DNA of 32,265 nucleotides from an uncultured virus (IMG/VR IMGVR_UViG_3300032562_000011) (lineage: Duplodnaviria; Heunggongvirae; Uroviricota; Caudoviricetes): IMG/VR virus record IMGVR_UViG_3300032562_000011; one strand, given 5' to 3'. The notes beneath the pieces were generated by a model that did no database searches, was not told where the DNA came from, and saw nothing but the letters and a program-made list of their open reading frames with translations. Positions 14,055 to 32,265 of this stretch are shown here, in pieces; position 1 is the stretch's first letter, and each line of letters begins with the position of its first letter. Made by a program: the position numbers and the translations under genes.

Positions 14055-14146
14055 TGTCTAACTATCTTTAGACAGACCTTCTGAGGGCTAACCCTCATAC
14101 TTTATACCACGGGGAACCACACTAATCGTAAACCGAGGTATACAAC

Positions 14147-14425
14147 ATGTCAGAGCAAGACGAGAAAGACGTGCTGCGCGTTTCAGCCAGCAGTAACCCA
14201 CAGGCGGTAGCTTCCGCCATTGCCCACGCTATCTATGAAACCCGCACCTGTAAGGTACGCGCCGTAGGTGCTGGGGCTGTAAACCAAGCCACCAAAGCCC
14301 TAGCCATTGCGCGCGGATATACTGCCCCACGAGGCATTGATATCGCATATGTCCCTGGGTTCACCACTATTAAGAGCCATGATGGGGATATTTCAGCCAT
14401 GGTTCTAACAGTGATTACCATTTAA
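14147..14425 (+). CDS. spoVS: SpoVS-family protein
   Basis: VLRVSASSNPQAVASAIA...VRAVGAGAVNQATKALAIARGY.AP.GID...PGF matches the SpoVS family over its whole length; GAGG RBS. Confidence 0.92.
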   Translation: MSEQDEKDVLRVSASSNPQAVASAIAHAIYETRTCKVRAVGAGAVNQATKALAIARGYTAPRGIDIAYVPGFTTIKSHDGDISAMVLTVITI

Positions 14426-24256: not shown

Positions 24257-24351
24257 TAACTAATCTTTGCGATAATCTGCTAGCCTAGTGGCACCATGTC
24301 CTGGAGCATGCGGCTTAGGGTTAAGGTTCCTCCTAAAACCTATCCAGATAG

Positions 24352-24422
24352 TGGGAATAAGTGTTACGGTAGCACGTGGAGCTCCAACCTCCAAGGCACG
24401 GGTTCGACCCCTGTATTCCCTG
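24352..24422 (+). tRNA. tRNA-Trp (CCA)
   Basis: Acceptor TGGGAAT/ATTCCCT, D stem GTGT/GCAC, anticodon stem TGGAG/CTCCA with loop CTCCAAC, T stem ACGGG/CCTGT with loop TTCGACC, discriminator G; 3' CCA not encoded. Confidence 0.85.
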
Positions 24423-24515
24423 CGGTGATACACCTCCATGACTGAAAATCATGGGGGGTTGTAATTCCAAGATGAACCTATTAAACTGATAAGGGACAAT
24501 CAGTAACCGAGCATA

Positions 24516-24553
24516 GAAAAAGCCCCCCTAAACTAGGGGGGCTTTCTTTCTTT
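24516..24553. terminator. bidirectional intrinsic terminator between the convergent arms
   Basis: GAAAAAGCCCCCCTA-AAC-TAGGGGGGCTTTCTTTCTTT, with an A-run before and T-run after. Confidence 0.9.
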
Positions 24554-24649
24554 CGGCGCAGGTACGGCTCGCTCGGAAGGGTTGAGGTCTTGACCGTCCT
24601 TAGTAGGAACGAGTGGAAACTACTTTAACGCCCCTCTTAAAAATCTCTC

Positions 24650-24751
24650 TTATTCGTCGTCCTCTTCTTCAATAATCTCTTCGTCCTCAAAAGGGTCTTG
24701 ATTAGGATTGGTTATGTGCCAATCAGGAAGTCCTCCACTGATTGGGTTCAC
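24650..24751 (-). CDS. 33-aa peptide with highly acidic tail (not in ORF track)
   Basis: MNPISGGLPDWHITNPNQDPFEDEEIIEEEDDE*; GTGA overlap with the upstream gene, AAGGTGG RBS. Confidence 0.65.
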   Translation of the reverse strand: MNPISGGLPDWHITNPNQDPFEDEEIIEEEDDE

Positions 24752-25029
24752 GCTTCCACCTTAAAATCAATAGAGCCCATAAGGAAGGTAGGCTTACCGT
24801 TCTCATCTTCAATCGTAGGGGACAACTTAATTGACTTGCGTCCTGTTGTGACTAGCAATTCGCTCTTTACCCAGCGCTTACCAGCAGAGGCGTTAGACCA
24901 TGCGCTCATAACTACGTTGGAGACCTCTCCTAGTTCGTTACGTACGGCTACAGTACAGAGCCATGCGCCACTCTTTTCGGTGTTCTTTGCTAGTGAAGCA
25001 ATAAACGTATTCGTTACCTTTTTAGCCAT
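24748..25029 (-). CDS. hypothetical protein
   Basis: 93 aa ORF, AAGGA RBS. Confidence 0.75.
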   Translation of the reverse strand: MAKKVTNTFIASLAKNTEKSGAWLCTVAVRNELGEVSNVVMSAWSNASAGKRWVKSELLVTTGRKSIKLSPTIEDENGKPTFLMGSIDFKVEA

Positions 25030-25486
25030 TTGTATTCCTTCTTTCTTTGGGTGTGTAATCTACCACATTAGAGTACTGCTTGTCATCTACCACCCAAAAG
25101 TATGGCATCTCGCCATTTACATCAGGGAATTGTTCTTGATAGTACTCAGGGGCTTTTCGGATTAGATTAGATTGGTGAGACTTATGGAGTCGCTCGTCAC
25201 CTAGCCACGCGGGCATGGTTGGGGCGCCTACACAAACAAATCTCTCCAGCATGGTGTCCTTGTATCCACGCGCTATCCACTCTAGGCACATCTCTCTCCC
25301 GTAAGCATTGAGCGCGTCCTCGTACCCAGCCCACATCAAGACTGCAGGGTGGTTACGCCACCCCTTAGTCTCTCCCCGTAAGGCTTTAAGTATCTGCCAC
25401 GCTTCAACTCTCTGCCTACCTAGCCTACGGTAATCCAGCGCACGTGCTGTATCCGTAAAGTTAGGTAGCGGTAGAAAAGTTTGCAT
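25022..25486 (-). CDS. pyrimidine dimer DNA glycosylase-like (MSMEG_6728 family)
   Basis: MQTFLP...LDYRRLGRQRVEAWQIL...GWRNHPAVLMW...PAWLGD...HKSHQSNLIRK..Y...F...PYFW. Confidence 0.85.
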   Translation of the reverse strand: MQTFLPLPNFTDTARALDYRRLGRQRVEAWQILKALRGETKGWRNHPAVLMWAGYEDALNAYGREMCLEWIARGYKDTMLERFVCVGAPTMPAWLGDERLHKSHQSNLIRKAPEYYQEQFPDVNGEMPYFWVVDDKQYSNVVDYTPKERRNTNG

Positions 25487-25821
25487 TACTCAGTCTCTCT
25501 ATCTAGGCTCTCTGCATGGAGTACTGCTCGTTTATGTCCCTCTTGCGCTTGCTCTAAGGTTGAGTATCTCTCTTGATACACCTCAGACCAATCATCTTTA
25601 GGAAAGACCATAGTCTCAAATATGACTGGAGGTGCTTCGTCATTAGAACCAAGGCGCATATCTATACCAGTCCACACTGTGGATACGCGATAGTTATTTA
25701 CCTCGTAGTACCCTACGCGCTTATACGTATGGTCAGTGGTATATTCGCCCCACTGTTTAAGGCTAATCTTATTGCCCTTACGGTCGTAGCACCTATAGTC
25801 ATTCTCTTGACTACTCATCAT
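25486..25821 (-). CDS. hypothetical phage protein
   Basis: VSTVWTG...FETMVF...RYSTLEQAQEGH; coupled ORF. Confidence 0.75.
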   Translation of the reverse strand: MMSSQENDYRCYDRKGNKISLKQWGEYTTDHTYKRVGYYEVNNYRVSTVWTGIDMRLGSNDEAPPVIFETMVFPKDDWSEVYQERYSTLEQAQEGHKRAVLHAESLDRETE

Positions 25822-26137
25822 CTGACTCCTCTTTTAGAGTTGCGAACTCTCCTGAAAACCAATCTCTTGCCCATTCGCTGGCAGAGTTGTACCCATTCTC
25901 TAATGTGATAAGGGTATCGGAGGCTAGGTACGCGCTCCATACGCTCTCTACTGTAGTACCTTCTTTGAGGTCGTACTCAGTATCAGATTGAAACTCTTCT
26001 ACATAGTCTGCTAAGCATGCGTAGACAAATACGTCAGCAAACTTTGGGCGACCCTCACGATACGCATAATCATTAAGCGCTTCTAGTACCTCTTTGATAC
26101 GAAGGTCACTGCCTACTACTTCACCTAGATTACCCAT
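25811..26137 (-). CDS. hypothetical acidic protein
   Basis: 108 aa ORF, GAGGA RBS. Confidence 0.75.
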   Translation of the reverse strand: MGNLGEVVGSDLRIKEVLEALNDYAYREGRPKFADVFVYACLADYVEEFQSDTEYDLKEGTTVESVWSAYLASDTLITLENGYNSASEWARDWFSGEFATLKEESDDE

Positions 26138-26140
26138 TTT

Positions 26141-26662
26141 TTATTCCTCTTCCTTTTCTTGTCGTGTTTCGTCATATTTTATTACTTCCGCGCTTAACAT
26201 GCAAGCAAGGACACTTTCTTTTAACTGCCTAAGGTTAGCGTAAATATCAAAATCTACTTTAGACTCTTTTGTAACTTTATCTAGTAAATACTCTAGCGGT
26301 GCTAACGAAACTGTATAGCCCTCCTCGTCTTTGTACTCTAAAGATAAGTTTTCTATAAAGTACGCCACTAGTAAGTCTGCTAGAGACACTTCCGTTTTGC
26401 TTTTATCTAGTCTACGTGCGCCGTCCTCAACGTACGTTAAATCTCTTAGAACGCCTGTTACTCGGTTACCGATAGGGGGTTCGGAATCATAATTAACATT
26501 AGTATGACGCCCGTGCTGGATAAGGTTATTTATATTATTCGCAATAATAGTATGTGCTTCCGCACTTAGGTTTCTATATGAGAGGTCTCTGTCTTTAGCA
26601 TAAGACGGGCGCGCGTGGTGAGGTTCGTCTCCCCACTGCTTACTAATATTACTTTTAGCCAT
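26141..26662 (-). CDS. hypothetical protein
   Basis: 173 aa ORF, TAATG coupling. Confidence 0.75.
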   Translation of the reverse strand: MAKSNISKQWGDEPHHARPSYAKDRDLSYRNLSAEAHTIIANNINNLIQHGRHTNVNYDSEPPIGNRVTGVLRDLTYVEDGARRLDKSKTEVSLADLLVAYFIENLSLEYKDEEGYTVSLAPLEYLLDKVTKESKVDFDIYANLRQLKESVLACMLSAEVIKYDETRQEKEEE

Positions 26663-26877
26663 TAGTTATGCCCTCTGCAATCACAACATTCCTCGCACCG
26701 TGTTGGCACATACACGCATTGGCGGATACCGTACTGTGCGCCTACTGTGCCCCGTTTAGGTGTGGCTTCTCCACACCTAGAGCATTCAATATAACAATCG
26801 TTGCACTCCCCGTTACAGCAAGCGCAAGCGTTCTCGTAAGCGACATGCTCGCATGCTTCATGGATAACCTTAGTCAT
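26662..26877 (-). CDS. very Cys-rich small protein (13 Cys in 71 aa)
   Basis: ACEH...CACC...C..C...C..C...C...C..CC.C..H; ATG 26877 fits the GGAG RBS. Confidence 0.7.
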   Translation of the reverse strand: MTKVIHEACEHVAYENACACCNGECNDCYIECSRCGEATPKRGTVGAQYGIRQCVYVPTRCEECCDCRGHN

Positions 26878-27055
26878 TTTTGATTTCTCCAAATTCTTTT
26901 AGAACCTCACGTAGCACGTCAATCGCGCCTCTGTAGTACTCATCTGACTCAAAGTGCTCGTCATCAGGTATCTCAACCCCTGTACGGGCTTCCTCCCACG
27001 CGACTTGCAGACTCCATGAACGTTCTTTTATATAATCAAGTACGTCTTTACTCAT
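26870..27055 (-). CDS. hypothetical protein
   Basis: 61 aa ORF, GGAGG RBS, ATGA overlap. Confidence 0.75.
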   Translation of the reverse strand: MSKDVLDYIKERSWSLQVAWEEARTGVEIPDDEHFESDEYYRGAIDVLREVLKEFGEIKND

Positions 27056-27261
27056 TTTAGTCCTCCCATATTTCTTCCGCCGTCAGAGTCTCTGACTATT
27101 ACTTGCTTAGTGACTTGCCTAAGGTTATCCCAACCGTAGTACTCTTGCATGAAAGTAAAGTATTCCTCTGCAATCTTTTCGCCGTCAGTTTCCTCGGTTG
27201 TTACGTCTCCAACTAATGAGAAGTAGTCACCTATAAATAGAACCGTATAATCTTTAGCCAT
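27052..27261 (-). CDS. hypothetical protein
   Basis: 69 aa ORF, AAGGA RBS. Confidence 0.75.
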   Translation of the reverse strand: MAKDYTVLFIGDYFSLVGDVTTEETDGEKIAEEYFTFMQEYYGWDNLRQVTKQVIVRDSDGGRNMGGLK

Positions 27262-27299
27262 TGTCCTTGCCCTTACGTTTAGTTTGCGGTTTGTTTGTG

Positions 27300-27446
27300 T
27301 TGAGTAGCCTTACCAGCAATAAGGTTGATATGGCTCTGCACGTCTCGGTTATCACCCCGACCGATTTTCGTACGAATGTCTGCGACTGAGGCAGACTACT
27401 CACGGCTCGTGCTCCAGTGTCCGTTGCTGTGCGCAAGGCTACTCAA
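27300..27446 (-). ncRNA. candidate structured non-coding RNA (147 nt)
   Basis: Perfect 12-bp terminal inverted repeat TTGAGTAGCCTT/AAGGCTACTCAA enclosing nested stems CAGCAA/TTGCTG, GCACG/CGTGC, GTCTGC/GCAGAC, TCGGT/ACCGA; fills the only large gap in the arm. Confidence 0.7.
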
Positions 27447-27459
27447 TTCTATTTAGTTT

Positions 27460-27933
27460 TTACCAACTACTCTGATAGTAGAACGTCCACCATTGCTCGC
27501 CCTCAGTCCACTTCAGCAGGTTCTCTAAGGTCTTGACGGTATCCTCTAACTGTTCGTAGTACCAGTTGTCGTACTCGGTATGACCGAAAAAGAATCCTTC
27601 CATAGCAGGAAGTAGTTCCTCTGTCTTAGTCTTATCCTTCAATACTTCTTGGCAGATATTAGATAGTTCCTTTAACTGCTCTCGCGTAACGTTAGCCTGC
27701 TGGCAATCATCTACACCACCCTGCACGTTTTTTACGAACCACTGATGGATAGCATTAGCCTTGCGCCAGTAACCTACCTTCAACTTTACTTCTGCCGAAG
27801 GCAAGTCTCTGTACTCAATGCCGTTAGCGCGTATCGCGGTAACAATATCTTGGTACTGTTGCTTCTCGTAATCGTCCGACCATTCGGCGCCCGATACGTA
27901 CTTCTCTGCGTATAGATACATGTCTAGTCCCAC
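27460..27933 (-). CDS. conserved phage protein of unknown function (MGLDMYL...YWRKANAIH type)
   Basis: MGLDMYL, YWRKANAIHQWF, LLP..GFFFG..EYD.WY, YYQSSW. Confidence 0.8.
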   Translation of the reverse strand: MGLDMYLYAEKYVSGAEWSDDYEKQQYQDIVTAIRANGIEYRDLPSAEVKLKVGYWRKANAIHQWFVKNVQGGVDDCQQANVTREQLKELSNICQEVLKDKTKTEELLPAMEGFFFGHTEYDNWYYEQLEDTVKTLENLLKWTEGEQWWTFYYQSSW

Positions 27934-28157
27934 TTGATGTTGCCCTTCTCTAGTTGGTTTAGTTTTCTTACTGCGTAGCCTACTTTGTCCGATAATTCGT
28001 TGTCAAGGTTTTCCACGCTTGGGTTGTATAACGGTTTGATAAACTTTTCGTTGTAGTAGATAGCACCGTCAGGGAAGACTGCGTTCTCTGTCTCCACGTC
28101 CCAGTCCCACTCTTTTCTTTTAGAATCGTATTTAATTATAAAGTGGTGGCTTGTCAT
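27924..28157 (-). CDS. hypothetical protein
   Basis: 77 aa ORF, ATGA overlap. Confidence 0.7.
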   Translation of the reverse strand: MTSHHFIIKYDSKRKEWDWDVETENAVFPDGAIYYNEKFIKPLYNPSVENLDNELSDKVGYAVRKLNQLEKGNIKWD

Positions 28158-28348
28158 AAGAACACCTTCTGACTGTCCTCTAAGTAGAACGAGTAATCAA
28201 TCGCGCTCTCTACTAGGTTTATCAAGTGAGGCACTTCCATAACCGTACTGTTTAATAGGCTAATGCTATCTTTCAGTTGGTTAAGCGTTTCTCGTAATAG
28301 GTCAGAGTAATCAATGGTTGATACCTGTACTTCAATAGGCTTATCCAT
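28154..28348 (-). CDS. hypothetical protein
   Basis: 64 aa ORF, AGGAGG RBS. Confidence 0.7.
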   Translation of the reverse strand: MDKPIEVQVSTIDYSDLLRETLNQLKDSISLLNSTVMEVPHLINLVESAIDYSFYLEDSQKVFL

Positions 28349-28353
28349 TAGCC

Positions 28354-28461
28354 CTAGTCCTCCTTGTTATATCGTAGGTACTCGTTGCGCTTATCGGCGC
28401 CTTCTGTGATTAGGCATGATATGAATACTGCTATCAATGCCCCTATAACTATCGCGGTCAT
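28354..28461 (-). CDS. 35-aa membrane-anchored peptide (not in ORF track)
   Basis: MTAIVIGALIAVFISCLITEGADKRNEYLRYNKED*; AGGAG RBS. Confidence 0.7.
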   Translation of the reverse strand: MTAIVIGALIAVFISCLITEGADKRNEYLRYNKED

Positions 28462-28494
28462 GGTTCTCCTATTAGAATCCCACTAGGGGGCAGA

Positions 28495-30372
28495 CTATCT
28501 GCCCCGTAGCGCTTCCTTGACTAGTTCCGTTGCGACACCGAGCACGTCGCTTGCTTTTGCTACAGTCTTGAATACCTTTGCGAAGTGTCGGATACTCTGT
28601 AACTGCTCTTTGGCTGACTTGTCGCCTGTGTTACTAGCCTCAATTATTTGGCGGTAGTACTCATAGTTACCAATAAAGACTACGCATGTGAGGATACCCT
28701 TAGCGTTCATCTCCTTGATAATGCTATTGCACTCGTCGCTCATTTCCCATTCGCCGTCGGTGACTATGAAGGCAATCTTGATAGCCTTCTTGCTGTTACC
28801 CAGTAGGCGTTGGCTCTCAATGAGGGCGCGGATAGGATTAGTGCTACCTCCCGATTGAACGTAGCGATAGTTGCTACCCTTAGCCTTCTCGTTGCGTGAG
28901 TACACTAAACGGCTCTCATGGTTGAAGGTATAGACGGTCACTGCACCGTCAATATTCTCAATGCCACGTTTGATAATCCATGCGTTCTCATTAACTGCGG
29001 TCATACGCCCACCCATAGAGGAGGAGTTATCCGTTAGGATTACTGCTTCAATGTCGGTGGCAGGGTTGCCTGTGTCCCATGTATCAAACATCTCACCGAT
29101 AGCATTAACGTCGGGAGTCATGGTACGAGAGACGTTGAGTTTCCCACTTGAATTGAACTTATCCCAATGGGGTTCGCTGTCTTTGGCGATACGTTCTAAT
29201 TGAATACCGAACCTACGCGCTAAGGCTACCGAGTTTGTTCTGGGCGCTTGGTCACGATAGATAGCGTTACGCATAGCACTACGGGTCTCGTCGCTATTGA
29301 TAATAGCCTTACGGGTCTCAGAGACTTCACGCTTTACGTCAGAGTCATCTCTAATCTCTTGAAGGCGTTCCTCAATAACCTTAGCAATCTTGGCGTCCTC
29401 CTCGGTGAAGTCTAAGTCCTCGCCCGTATATTCAGGAGAGTCCTTACCTCCAGCACCGATAGCAGGGGCGTTCAGTTGCTCTAATTCAGAACCTTCACCC
29501 TTGTTCTTATCTTGCAGTTGATTCTGTTCTTTCTGACCAGCAGGGCGCCCCTTTGTGCCTAGGCTTCGGTCTGTGTGAGGCGCTTTAGGGTTCTGCTCAT
29601 TAGGGTCATCAAACCCGATAATGTTAGCCATGCGTACGGCTATATCTTTAGCCTTATCAAAATCTGCAGGGAAGGCGAAGGCTTTGTAGGTATGAATAAG
29701 TAAGTGCATTTCCTCTGCTAAGGCTATGCCATGACGAGCGATAAACTTATCGGCAATCAACTGGCGCAACTCTAGCGGTAGGTACGTACGCCCCGTAGTG
29801 AGGTGAAAGTGTTCTCCCCATTCTTTGGAGTCACCCTTCAACACGTAGTCAAGGGTGCTTGCCTCTAGGAACACTTTGGTAGCAGGGTACTTGGCTGTAA
29901 GCAAGCCCTCTACACGTCCCTCCTCTAACACGTTGAGCGCATTGATAACCTTATTCTCTCTAGCCCACTTGCCTAGGTCACTGCCAGCACGTGGTGAGAA
30001 TAGGACGTGAGCAATCTCGTGGTAGTTCAAGCCGTTGAACGAGATAAGGCTATCGGTAGTCAAGTCCTCAATTAAGTCGGAATTGAATATGATTTCCTTG
30101 CCGTTGCTCATAGCCGTAGTGTTCATGTTAGGGTCAGACACCACCGAGACGGTGATGTCCTCTCCTGTGATAATCCTATCGGCACGCTGGTACACGGCAC
30201 TAACGGCGTTGAGTTTATCGGCTTGCTCTTGATAATCCTCTAGGATTTCCTCACGAGTACGCCCCCACTCATCTTGGTACTCAAACTCATTAGTATCAGG
30301 ATTGTACCGAGCAGATAGATTTCTGCTATCTTCTAGCGCCGATAACTCGTCGGTATTCTTTGAGTATCTCAT
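28495..30372 (-). CDS. zincin-like metallopeptidase + von Willebrand factor A domain protein (CobT-like architecture)
   Basis: YHEIAH (HExxH) and NVLEEGRVE; low-complexity linker; VWA MIDAS DNSSSM, GGST, IVTDG. Confidence 0.85.
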   Translation of the reverse strand: MRYSKNTDELSALEDSRNLSARYNPDTNEFEYQDEWGRTREEILEDYQEQADKLNAVSAVYQRADRIITGEDITVSVVSDPNMNTTAMSNGKEIIFNSDLIEDLTTDSLISFNGLNYHEIAHVLFSPRAGSDLGKWARENKVINALNVLEEGRVEGLLTAKYPATKVFLEASTLDYVLKGDSKEWGEHFHLTTGRTYLPLELRQLIADKFIARHGIALAEEMHLLIHTYKAFAFPADFDKAKDIAVRMANIIGFDDPNEQNPKAPHTDRSLGTKGRPAGQKEQNQLQDKNKGEGSELEQLNAPAIGAGGKDSPEYTGEDLDFTEEDAKIAKVIEERLQEIRDDSDVKREVSETRKAIINSDETRSAMRNAIYRDQAPRTNSVALARRFGIQLERIAKDSEPHWDKFNSSGKLNVSRTMTPDVNAIGEMFDTWDTGNPATDIEAVILTDNSSSMGGRMTAVNENAWIIKRGIENIDGAVTVYTFNHESRLVYSRNEKAKGSNYRYVQSGGSTNPIRALIESQRLLGNSKKAIKIAFIVTDGEWEMSDECNSIIKEMNAKGILTCVVFIGNYEYYRQIIEASNTGDKSAKEQLQSIRHFAKVFKTVAKASDVLGVATELVKEALRGR

Positions 30373-31781
30373 TAGATTGTCTCCACGTGGTAGCGGTCTG
30401 TGTCAGGGTGAGTAGGGATAGAGATATTTAGTTCGCTTGCAATATTATCCTTGAAGGTATCAACGGATAGTCTTACTGCACTACGCTCTTCCTTATTGAA
30501 TCCGTTCACGAACGAGGTCGAGGCGAAGTCAATACCGAATCGCTTGGCGTTCTTTACGTACTGCACGAGGGAGCGCGTTGAGATAGGAGTAGTAATCTCA
30601 TCTTTCTCAAATTGGTCACGCAACTTATCGGCTAGTACTAGTAGAGAGGCATTACCTACTACCTTCTTCTCAATAGCCTTATCGTATGGAAACTCTAACT
30701 TGATACCGAATCGGTCATTGAACGCTTGGTTGAGTTCTTGTGTCCCACGATAGCCGTAGTTCATGTCAGCCACGATAAGTAGGTCTTTGTGCGCCTTAAT
30801 GACCTCGCCACCATTCTCTAGGAGTTGAATCTCACGGCGATAGTCAAGGAGTGAGAACAATACAGTGCTAACCCTAGTAGGAAGGAAGTTCACCTCATTG
30901 AGGAGAAGTACGCCACCGTTACGAACGAGTTCGGTAACTGCACCGTCCTGCCAGCGATAGCCTTGCCCGTCAGCACGTGGAATCCAGCGCCCGAATAGTT
31001 GGCTTGGGTCAATACCGTTATTGTTGGACACGTTGAAGTAGCGGTAGCCACGAGCCGAGGCATATGACTGCACTGCAATAGTCTTACCCGAACCAGCGCC
31101 ACCTTCAATTAGAACGTTGTCGCCGTCAGTCAGAGCGCGGTCGAAAATATCCCAGTCAGTCTTGCCACCAAAACTGCGGTGAACGTACTCACGAGCCCAC
31201 TTTGGGTCAGGAATAGTAATCATGGATAAGGCTAGTTCACTTACACGATTGTCATTGGTAGCCACTTCCACCTTCTCATAGGTAGGGATTGTGGGTGCGG
31301 TCACGACGGAATCCGCGATTGTGGGAAGTACACCCTGCTCAGTTGAACGAGCGATAGGGTTAATAATCACGCCATTGGTACGGCGCTTGTCGGTGATATA
31401 CGCGGTGAGCGATTGGTCACCAGCGAATAGGGAGCCGATAATGTTAATGACTGCCTCACTGTGTGTGGAGGGCGCGGTAATGGGGGTAGCACTTTCACGT
31501 GCATATAGAGCCTTGACTGCAATATTAGTGACTAAGCCTAGTTCAACCATTTGTAGGTCACGGTCATTGAGGGCAACTGCTACGGGCTCAACTAGGAGTT
31601 CGGTGTGCGGTAGGTCATATTCAGTAACCTTATTCCATGTTTGACCCCTACCTTTGGAGCCATTGGACGTGCGGTGGTATAGTTCCACCGAGTCCTTGTA
31701 AGGGAATATAAGAGTCTGCGCTTCTGCAGGAATACCTTCTAATAGCCCTGCTGGGCTAGTAACGAGTAGTGCTAGTGACAT
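30372..31781 (-). CDS. MoxR-type AAA+ ATPase (CbbQ/NirQ/CobS-like) with long N-terminal extension
   Basis: VLIEGGAGSGKT, WQDGAVT, LLLNEVN, DMN.GYRGTQELNQAFNDRF, ISTR; TAATG coupling to the VWA gene. Confidence 0.9.
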   Translation of the reverse strand: MSLALLVTSPAGLLEGIPAEAQTLIFPYKDSVELYHRTSNGSKGRGQTWNKVTEYDLPHTELLVEPVAVALNDRDLQMVELGLVTNIAVKALYARESATPITAPSTHSEAVINIIGSLFAGDQSLTAYITDKRRTNGVIINPIARSTEQGVLPTIADSVVTAPTIPTYEKVEVATNDNRVSELALSMITIPDPKWAREYVHRSFGGKTDWDIFDRALTDGDNVLIEGGAGSGKTIAVQSYASARGYRYFNVSNNNGIDPSQLFGRWIPRADGQGYRWQDGAVTELVRNGGVLLLNEVNFLPTRVSTVLFSLLDYRREIQLLENGGEVIKAHKDLLIVADMNYGYRGTQELNQAFNDRFGIKLEFPYDKAIEKKVVGNASLLVLADKLRDQFEKDEITTPISTRSLVQYVKNAKRFGIDFASTSFVNGFNKEERSAVRLSVDTFKDNIASELNISIPTHPDTDRYHVETI

Positions 31782-31845
31782 TGTGTACTGCCTTCCTGTG
31801 CGCGGTCTGCGCGGTTATGAGGATTATGTTTAATCCAGTACCCGT

Positions 31846-31875
31846 ACTCTAATATAAGAGAGAGGGGGGAGTCCA
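31846..31875 (-). promoter_or_regulatory. possible promoter for the minus-strand arm
   Basis: TGGACT, 18 nt spacer, TAGAGT on the minus strand, about 65 nt upstream of the AAA start. Confidence 0.35.
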
Positions 31876-31893
31876 ATTAGAATGGCTATATTT

Positions 31894-31961
31894 GATAACG
31901 ATTAGATAACGATTTATAGCCCGTTCTGCAACGCCAGCCATATATAACAAATCGTTATAAT
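31894..31961. promoter_or_regulatory. cluster of AATCGTTAT motifs (GTTAY-n6-GTTAY, GlnR/MtrA-box-like)
   Basis: ATAACGATT at 31895-31903 and 31906-31914 (11-bp period), AATCGTTAT at 31950-31958; CAAATCGTTATAAT (31948-31961) recurs at 32219-32232. Confidence 0.55.
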
Positions 31962-32085
31962 AGAGGGTAATCCAGTAACCCTAGTTAATACATAGCAGAC
32001 GGGGCTAACCTTATGGGAATCTGGTCTTATCCGCGTTCAAGCCCCCTATAGCATAGACAGTAGCCTAAAGTCAATAGTGGGAGTG

Positions 32086-32101
32086 TGTGACGTCGCTCAC
32101 A
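32086..32101. promoter_or_regulatory. CRP-type operator
   Basis: TGTGA-CGTCGC-TCACA, an exact TGTGA-N6-TCACA match in non-coding DNA. Confidence 0.7.
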
Positions 32102-32168
32102 GCCCCCTATCTCTCTCTCCGAGAGCGCGCTAAGCCTATTCTAACTATTCTAATAGGACACTCTCTTC

Positions 32169-32207
32169 TCCCAGCAATCTCTCAGGATTCTCTCAGGTAA
32201 TCTACAG
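32169..32207 (+). promoter_or_regulatory. tandem TCTCAG-N5 repeats (MprA-box-like, OmpR-family spacing)
   Basis: TCCCAG-caatc-TCTCAG-gattc-TCTCAG-gtaat-CTACAG, 11-bp period. Confidence 0.6.
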
Positions 32208-32233
32208 TAGATTGTTACCAAATCGTTATAATT

Positions 32234-32255
32234 GACACGGCGTGTCGGCTTGACA
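32234..32255 (+). promoter_or_regulatory. inverted GACAC pair (WhiA-type motif) next to a TTGACA -35 element
   Basis: GACAC-GGC-GTGTC (32234-32246), then TTGACA (32250-32255); the -10 would lie beyond the window. Confidence 0.55.
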
Positions 32256-32265
32256 AATGTTTGTG

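Follow-up and report, generated by a model that had tools for sequence, protein, structure and literature searches.

The minus strand of an uncultured freshwater phage harbors, between two genes, a 147-nt element that is probably a real, unclassified phage RNA structure; no described family matches it. The element was found within the window, by which we mean the whole stretch of DNA analyzed (32,265 nt; IMG/VR record IMGVR_UViG_3300032562_000011). A first-pass annotation had predicted an unrecognized structured RNA on the coding strand at this site. This core claim stood up to a search of Rfam, to a comparison for compensatory changes and to an inspection of the overlapping open reading frame (ORF), the comparison involving two distinct sequences only. 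Base pairs are retained in a diverged allele present on contig L020 and the overlapping 60-aa ORF is not conserved; a real, strand-specific and non-coding RNA structure is therefore likely. On balance, we lean towards the view that the structure is genuine and has been selected.

Genomic setting of the element

The window belongs to a large phage genome of the lytic type, roughly 100 kb in size (CheckV assigned a completeness of 27% to the nearest record of 26 kb). Its plus-strand block encodes a DnaB-like helicase, a primase, a family-A DNA polymerase, a UvsX-like recombinase, resolvases and exonucleases, together with a queuine-tRNA-ribosyltransferase-like protein and a ribonucleotide reductase. 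The minus-strand operon starts with the gene of an AAA_5 ATPase, followed by the gene of a protein with a weak VWA match, by many small overlapping ORFs and finally by a pyrimidine-dimer glycosylase gene. The two convergent blocks are separated by a non-coding region of 491 nt (24257-24747), inside which a tRNA-Trp (CCA) gene resides at 24352-24423. The features surrounding the element are as follows:

24748-31781, minus strand: operon, converging with the plus-strand block at a bidirectional terminator
near 24519-24545: bidirectional GC-rich terminator, adjoining the tRNA-Trp gene
27460..27933, minus strand: upstream gene, 157 aa, viral family phrog_7971 of unknown function, used as anchor for collecting relatives
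27300-27446, minus strand: structured-RNA element, 147 nt, non-coding, between the two genes
27262..27299, minus strand: C/A-rich unstructured spacer from the element to the RBS of the next gene, with an 11-nt unit of varying copy number
27052..27261, minus strand: downstream gene, 69 aa, no family match

A search of the ESM Atlas with the 157-aa upstream protein returned only unnamed viral clusters. The earlier statement that the element fills the only gap of about 200 nt in the operon was roughly right. Only two gaps, 27262-27459 (198 nt) and 28349-28494 (146 nt), interrupt its series of called ORFs with 60 aa or more, and the second one is mostly filled by a 35-aa ORF (28354-28461, minus strand) with a hydrophobic N-terminal half. 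This ORF probably encodes a small membrane protein below the 60-aa cut-off. Thus, the element occupies the only non-coding gap of considerable size in the operon. It ends 38 nt upstream of the start of the next gene. The 11-nt unit of the intervening spacer reads CAAACAAACCG; two extra units are present in the metagenome contig L019 (3135-3180) and one extra unit occurs in the sequencing run X21 behind position 27281. When the flanks were added to the fold (198 nt), -55.3 kcal/mol was obtained, which is almost no gain in energy over the element alone.

Beside the element, neither a sigma-70-type promoter nor an intrinsic terminator was detected on the minus strand. Promoter-like sites occurred at chance level in the region (10 found, 10.5 expected from shuffles), and the stem is followed by CACAAACAAACC instead of a U-run. 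As there is no flanking promoter or terminator on this strand, the element is probably co-transcribed with the operon.

Predicted fold of the window allele

The 147-nt minus-strand sequence quoted in the first-pass annotation matched exactly. Its MFE amounts to -54.3 kcal/mol (z -3.25), a value that none of 200 dinucleotide shuffles reached, while the plus strand folds slightly weaker (-52.2, z -2.86). The predicted structure consists of the following parts, listed from the 5′- to the 3′-end of the RNA:

27433..27446, minus strand: 5′ strand of P1, UUGAGUAGCCUUGC, pairing with 27300-27313 in the MFE structures of both alleles with a probability of 1.0
27430..27432, minus strand: bulge GCA (ACA in L020), 3 nt between P1 and P2, unpaired in both alleles
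27424..27429, minus strand: 5′ strand of P2, CAGCAA, pairing with 27314-27319
27403..27423, minus strand: arm A, CGG/CCG closing a variable apical part of 15 nt, in both MFE structures
27374..27401, minus strand: hairpin 1 (arm B), 4 + 6 bp, GAGU-A-GUCUGC / GCAGAC-AUUC, with the 7-nt loop CUCAGUC
27338..27373, minus strand: hairpin 2 (arm C), base GUACG/CGUGC, internal loop AAAA/GA, top UCGGU/ACCGA, loop CGGGGUGAUA
27320..27337, minus strand: junction strand of 18 nt leading from arm C to P2, AGAGCCAUAUCAACCUUA, mostly unpaired in the MFE structure
27314..27319, minus strand: 3′ strand of P2, UUGCUG, the same in both alleles
27300..27313, minus strand: 3′ strand of P1, GUAAGGCUACUCAA, the same in both alleles

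Most of the stems proposed earlier were recovered. The 6-bp stem CAGCAA/UUGCUG and both hairpins are present in the MFE structure, the top of hairpin 2 comprising five pairs and the 10-nt loop. The closing stem was described as having 14 bp; 13 pairs are formed, one of them G-U, and the fourteenth (the terminal U1-A147) is only possible. P1 and P2 (13-14 bp and 6 bp) together constitute a near-continuous duplex of ~20 bp in both alleles. P1, P2 and hairpin 1 are paired with probabilities of 0.86-1.0, hairpin 2 and arm A of the window allele with only ~0.5; for arm A, 0.45 and 0.84 were determined in the two alleles. In the lowest-energy fold P2, arm A, hairpin 1 and hairpin 2 on its GUACG/CGUGC base meet at a four-way junction. 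The three-way junction of the first-pass annotation, formed by a 5-bp stem GCACG/CGUGC and partly putting arm A to other use, is absent from this fold, yet it is only 0.2 kcal/mol worse in the window allele. In the L020 allele it is 2.1 kcal/mol worse than the MFE. The three-way layout may be regarded as one of two nearly isoenergetic models. We discarded a mini-hairpin CACG/CGUG, which becomes CGCG/CGCG in L020 by seemingly compensatory changes, as it lies 1.8-3.9 kcal/mol above the MFE with a pair probability of at most 0.07. The same changes fit the three-way model, too.

The assertion that the non-Watson-Crick pairs are G-U on the minus strand only held true, since three G-U pairs are the only non-canonical pairs of the core model. 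On the plus strand, the G-U pairs (three in the window allele, four in L020) turn into mismatches, and the sense fold beats the antisense fold by 2-3 kcal/mol in both alleles. With DNA parameters only weak folds of about -25 kcal/mol were obtained, and the two strands hardly differed. Out of 140 sliding 150-nt windows of the operon (mean -36.0, sd 7.4), two, both of them coding, fold at least as well as the element. Thermodynamics alone does not single it out.

Relatives, alleles and known families

Five records contain the identical 147 nt, among them G001 of IMG/VR, which shares 79% of the sampled words of the window, and the metagenome contigs L017, L018 and L019. The sole diverged allele, 86% identical with 19 substitutions and three indels, resides on a single contig, L020. 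Contigs spanning the element were present in three of four DNA sequencing runs and disclosed no variant inside it; only the 11-nt repeat varied. A look for runs containing the stretch brought up no RNA run. Collecting homologues by means of the flanking gene yielded one diverged allele and no wider set. The 157-aa gene led to 14 viral and 41 metagenome loci, of which only L017-L020 (97-99% protein identity) were found to contain the element. The other relatives (10 viral and 37 metagenome loci), with at most 54% protein identity, lack it according to blastn and a two-allele covariance model. This model (R1) recovered only the window and L020 in 51 sources (249 kb), and the single known copy in G001. 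With the 69-aa gene as anchor we obtained one distant locus (L016), in which the gene follows its neighbor without a gap and the element is missing; a 63-aa gene specific to L020 gave no loci. A blastn search with 601 nt against 50,697 phage records remained without match. Patterns derived from five blocks of the element, exact or degenerate, had 0 matches in IMG/VR, and one pattern had 13, all with unrelated flanks. Two element patterns, among them that of the terminal repeats, were also absent from 185,579 species genomes, the terminal-repeat pattern being absent from IMG/VR as well. Since relatives and pattern scans outside L017-L020 and G001 lack the element, its family appears to comprise one phage lineage with two alleles within the collections scanned.

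Other structures occupy the corresponding slot, behind the same gene family, in distant relatives. L001 and L021 exhibit a GC hairpin followed by a T-run (by eye), and three further loci contain a 25-bp hairpin without U-run, which had a z of -5.27 in L009 and no Rfam match:

L009 3478-3627, L010 3478-3634 and L011 3478-3640: slot hairpin, its apical stem different in L011 and still paired

The slot of L012 (3457-3736) and L014 (3377-3651) comprises ~280 nt of non-coding DNA with a tRNA T-arm-like sequence, GGAGGTTCGAGTCCTCC, and a GGGG...CCCC closing stem; a terminator-like hairpin comes next. ARAGORN and Rfam call nothing there.

Over 3.1 kb L020 is 97.4% identical to the window. Of the 81 differences, 22 fall into the 150-nt bin of the element, while the other bins contain at most nine. 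The 19 substitutions within the 147 nt compare with 5.9 expected at the rate of flanking third codon positions (4.0%; P 7e-6). L019, which is equally distant, shows 0 differences in the element as against 6.8 expected (P 0.0009). This all-or-nothing divergence fits two alleles, each of which would be conserved, and the L020 allele was probably imported by recombination. The outer ends are the same in both alleles, over 12 nt at the start and 31 nt at the end of the element, and the interior is ~20% different. Arm A is affected by five substitutions and one indel in 21 nt; about half of the allele differences lie either in this arm or in the upper stem and loop region of hairpin 2, its top. Eleven bases at the 3′ side of the junction strand are the same in both alleles.

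Folded alone, the L020 allele adopted the same architecture (-54.3 kcal/mol, z -3.40, one of 200 shuffles as good). Random mutants with 19 substitutions attained -54.3 or better in 33% (positions 13-116) or 6.6% (all positions) of the cases, and the retained fold energy is not informative. The individual pairs were compared using alignment A3, which is model-fitted, the structure having been derived from one of the two sequences and hairpin 2 having been aligned to fit it. Here, 83 of the 84 cells of 42 core pairs are paired, and L020 keeps 41 of the 42 pairs. The top of hairpin 2 reads GUGGU/ACCAC in L020, reflecting two adjacent double changes (U-A to G-C and C-G to U-A). Three one-sided changes run through G-U: G13-U to A-U and C14-G to U-G in P1, and A19-U to G-U in P2. 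One pair is broken, U52-A68 of hairpin 1, which became U.U; a C of the hairpin 1 loop is changed to U. Placed at random, 19 substitutions break 5.6-6.7 pairs, and the probability of at most one broken pair is 0.0013-0.006. In a structure-blind MAFFT alignment three pairs are broken (P 0.04-0.11). The comparative support comes from two distinct sequences only.

Each hairpin loop had also been reported to be complementary to one side of a bubble. These complementarities do exist in the window sequence, but UCAGU/ACUGG is broken up in L020, where three of five pairs are left, one change being kept as U-G and two positions being lost (alignment A3, by eye). A UCAGU/ACUGG pseudoknot is contradicted at the sequence level. 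The other pair, UGAUA in the loop of hairpin 2 and UAUCA in the junction strand, is unchanged in both alleles and exhibits no covariation. Its G-C extension is weakened in L020 by a change from G to A, and a shifted register is possible. A pseudoknot between these two strands is a possibility.

The element was not recognized as a member of any known family: on the minus strand, no Rfam match was obtained at E <= 10 in either allele. In the window, Rfam 15 (4227 models, among them tRNA, tmRNA, 6S, Y RNA-like RNAs, riboswitches and self-cleaving ribozymes) gave tRNA-Trp at 24352-24422 as the sole match at the gathering threshold, and at E <= 10 the region 27150-27600 yielded two plus-strand noise matches with E values of 2.3 and 8.8. 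The L020 allele had no match at E <= 10. ARAGORN detected only tRNA-Trp (24352-24423) as tRNA or tmRNA in the window and none in L020. Retron, pRNA, 6S and Y-RNA were rejected: Rfam gave no signal, and neither a reverse transcriptase nor a Ro-type partner is present among the ORFs scanned. Recoding, i.e. frameshifting or read-through of an upstream stop, was rejected as well, as all three frames stop within a few codons (by eye).

The overlapping 60-aa ORF (27254-27436), checked for its start codon and open frame, is conserved neither in L020 nor in L019. Its TTG start is TTA in L020, where several stops are in frame, and in L019 a 22-nt expansion of the 11-nt unit throws it out of frame. PHROG and Pfam contained no match to this ORF. 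Both plus-strand ORFs over the element are broken in L020. Judged by these sequence comparisons, a protein-coding reading of the element is excluded. L020 possesses an intact 42-aa basic ORF with its own RBS. Of this ORF the window retains no more than the terminal ~16 codons, as the final 16 of the 60-aa ORF, and for this reason the latter seems to cross the element. Two extra ORFs of L020 (3139-3464) are situated between the element and the MAKDYTVL-type gene, the very basic one of 42 aa with a good RBS and an acidic one of 63 aa, neither of which matched Pfam. Furthermore, L019 (3588-4016) and L020 (3850-4278) contain an insertion of ~430 nt relative to window positions 26869-26881, encoding in L020 a 154-aa ORF with a CxxC-rich C-terminus. 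This insertion indicates that small genes are frequently gained and lost in the operon.

Possible functions and comparison with known systems

As to function, we tentatively rank first a cis-acting module between cistrons that would serve RNase III-type processing or the stability of the message. This ranking was based on the size of the duplex and on the transcript-boundary features in the corresponding slot of relatives. The element would be transcribed as part of the polycistronic minus-strand message, and its basal duplex of ~20 bp would match in size the substrates of a double-strand-specific endonuclease, the host RNase III. By cutting there, the enzyme would separate the upstream from the downstream parts of the message, whereupon the branched domain may be released as a small stable RNA or stay as a protective end structure. 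In both alleles the duplex (13-14 plus 6 bp) agrees with the about 20-22 bp of an RNase III signal, though the 3-nt bulge breaks it, which speaks against this model. The identity of the outer ends, set against the divergent interior, would suit such a module but could also simply mark recombination breakpoints. Moreover, compensatory changes preserve hairpin 2, although a conserved branched top would be superfluous in a plain processing stem; this indicates that the apical domain would have a function which the processing model leaves unexplained.

RNase III signals of phage T7 are simple hairpins with an internal loop, whereas the element has a three-arm branched domain with conserved single strands and no sequence similarity to them, and its cleavage by RNase III is putative. 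For the E. coli enzyme an idealized substrate has 22 bp, and the polycistronic early message of T7 carries five RNase III signals (PMC3867540). The element resembles the T7 signals in its intercistronic position within a phage operon, in a basal duplex of about two helical turns and in the lack of an own promoter or terminator.

The maintained branched top argues for an apical role of its own, and a trans-acting RNA and a cis-regulatory leader therefore remain serious rivals of the processing module. A trans-acting small RNA (a decoy, sponge or antisense regulator), excised or made alone, is a doubtful though conceivable explanation. It would act through conserved single strands, UAUCAACCUUA of the 3′ junction strand and the loop of hairpin 2, with arm A as the specificity region. 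That compensatory changes maintain the branched domain, that the single-stranded blocks are the same in both alleles while arm A varies, and that two distinct alleles coexist, as judged from the 19 substitutions of L020 against 5.9 expected, would suit such an RNA. No promoter or terminator of its own was detected, however, and the allele difference may be due to recombination import rather than to diversifying selection; the best target of the loops and junction strand in the 32-kb window (13 of 18 bases) corresponded to background. Going further, the element may be the first example of a novel class of phage non-coding RNAs, in which the branched domain is functional (binding a ligand or protein, catalytic, or a decoy in phage-host conflict) and in which distinct alleles are exchanged or diversify fast around a fixed scaffold with single-stranded junction motifs; taken as a whole, we consider this unlikely. 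A leader controlling the downstream genes, be it a protein-binding translational operator or a ligand-binding aptamer, is decidedly unlikely. The next start lies 38 nt away behind an unstructured C/A-rich spacer, in L020 an RBS and the 42-aa basic ORF follow within about 10 nt, and aptamers typically have multi-branch junctions with contacts between loops and strands. On the other hand, the spacer length varies in 11-nt units, the downstream gene is different in the two alleles and no riboswitch family matched; the 20-bp basal helix is very stable without evident alternative pairing with the RBS, so that a switch mechanism is not apparent. That the element represents a novel self-cleaving ribozyme class is very improbable. 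Its compact, multi-branched form with possible contacts between loops and strands would suit a ribozyme, and small ribozymes are common in phages, but no ribozyme family of Rfam was hit at E <= 10 by either allele, the hammerhead core (CUGANGA ... GAAA) is not matched by eye, and nothing indicates a cleavage site.

Other explanations dispense with a minus-strand RNA function. That a left-over spacer simply folds well by chance is quite unlikely in our view, even though the two coding windows of the operon fold equally well, a third of the random mutation trials preserve the fold energy and the structure-blind test was marginal (P 0.04-0.11). The absence of any difference in L019 where 6.8 were expected, the preservation of the same specific helices in an allele diverged by 14% and the tight packing of genes elsewhere in the operon all oppose it. 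A feature acting at the DNA level is distinctly improbable, be it a palindromic insertion in the form of a miniature mobile element whose terminal inverted repeats measure 14 bp, a hot spot of recombination or a structure of single-stranded DNA. The ends are indeed inverted repeats, complementary at 13 of 14 positions, and relatives of both flanking genes lack the element. It also lies at a mosaic boundary, with the insertions of L020 directly behind it and an interior resembling an allele swap, and G.T wobble is tolerated in folded single-stranded DNA, too. However, there is a single copy in the window and in G001, all exact matches of the 12-nt end in the window being the two ends of the element itself, and the terminal-repeat pattern scored 0 both in IMG/VR and in the 185,579 species genomes. 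No target-site duplication is visible by eye in the flanks (AATAGAA / CACAAAC), compensatory change keeps the internal hairpins, and DNA parameters yield weak folds (about -25 kcal/mol) with hardly any strand bias. Hardly to be expected, finally, is an antisense small RNA of the plus strand, running from a promoter-like sequence (27224-27251) to a weak terminator-like hairpin (27345-27364). The promoter-like site matches at 10 of 12 positions, the best in the region scanned, and the plus-strand hairpin has a T-rich tail; but such sites were at chance (10 versus 10.5 expected), this one resides inside coding sequence and is about 320 nt further from the element in L020, where the T-run is shorter, and the G-U pairs favor the minus strand.

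Neisseria Correia elements and enterobacterial ERIC are transcribed miniature inverted-repeat elements that form a long stem when transcribed, and Correia elements are reported to be cut by RNase III. The size of about 150 nt and the terminal inverted repeats folding to a long stem are shared with our element, which differs from them in being single-copy, in having no target duplication and in an end pattern unmatched in the viral and genome collections. In phi29 pRNA the 5′- and 3′-ends form a long helix carrying a junction with two hairpins, an arrangement that is found here as well. In contrast to pRNA, the two hairpin loops of the element are not complementary to each other (by eye), it is situated inside an operon of a phage with DnaB, primase and PolA replication genes, and no Rfam family was matched at E <= 10, which covers pRNA if Rfam holds it.

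If real, the structure would be a compact, multi-branched and unclassified newcomer among the phage non-coding RNAs of defined fold, of which there are still few. Its two clearly different alleles in a 97% identical background would represent a natural mutate-and-rescue pair for probing and functional tests. The element is confined to a single phage lineage in the collections scanned and opens no long-standing question; a survey of IMG/VR has previously put forward thousands of comparable structured RNAs in viral data (10,006 predicted motifs; Fremin, Bhatt and Kyrpides 2023, PMC10690425). The element is similar to those candidates in being an unclassified phage-borne intergenic RNA structure with comparative support. 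Four strings of the element are absent from the searchable supplementary files of PMC10690425, the alignment archives and one spreadsheet, in which it may already be listed, lying outside that search.

Some other sites of the window attracted our attention. On the plus strand, a 92-nt intergenic region (14055-14146) with two hairpins (z -4.03) is located directly upstream of a clear SpoVS homologue (14147-14425; PF04232, E 2.5e-27), which is an unusual phage gene. Upstream of the minus-strand operon (31782-32265, minus strand), repeated TATAACGATTTG / AATCGTTAT motifs and promoter-like hexamers were identified. These repeats may be operator or iteron sites.
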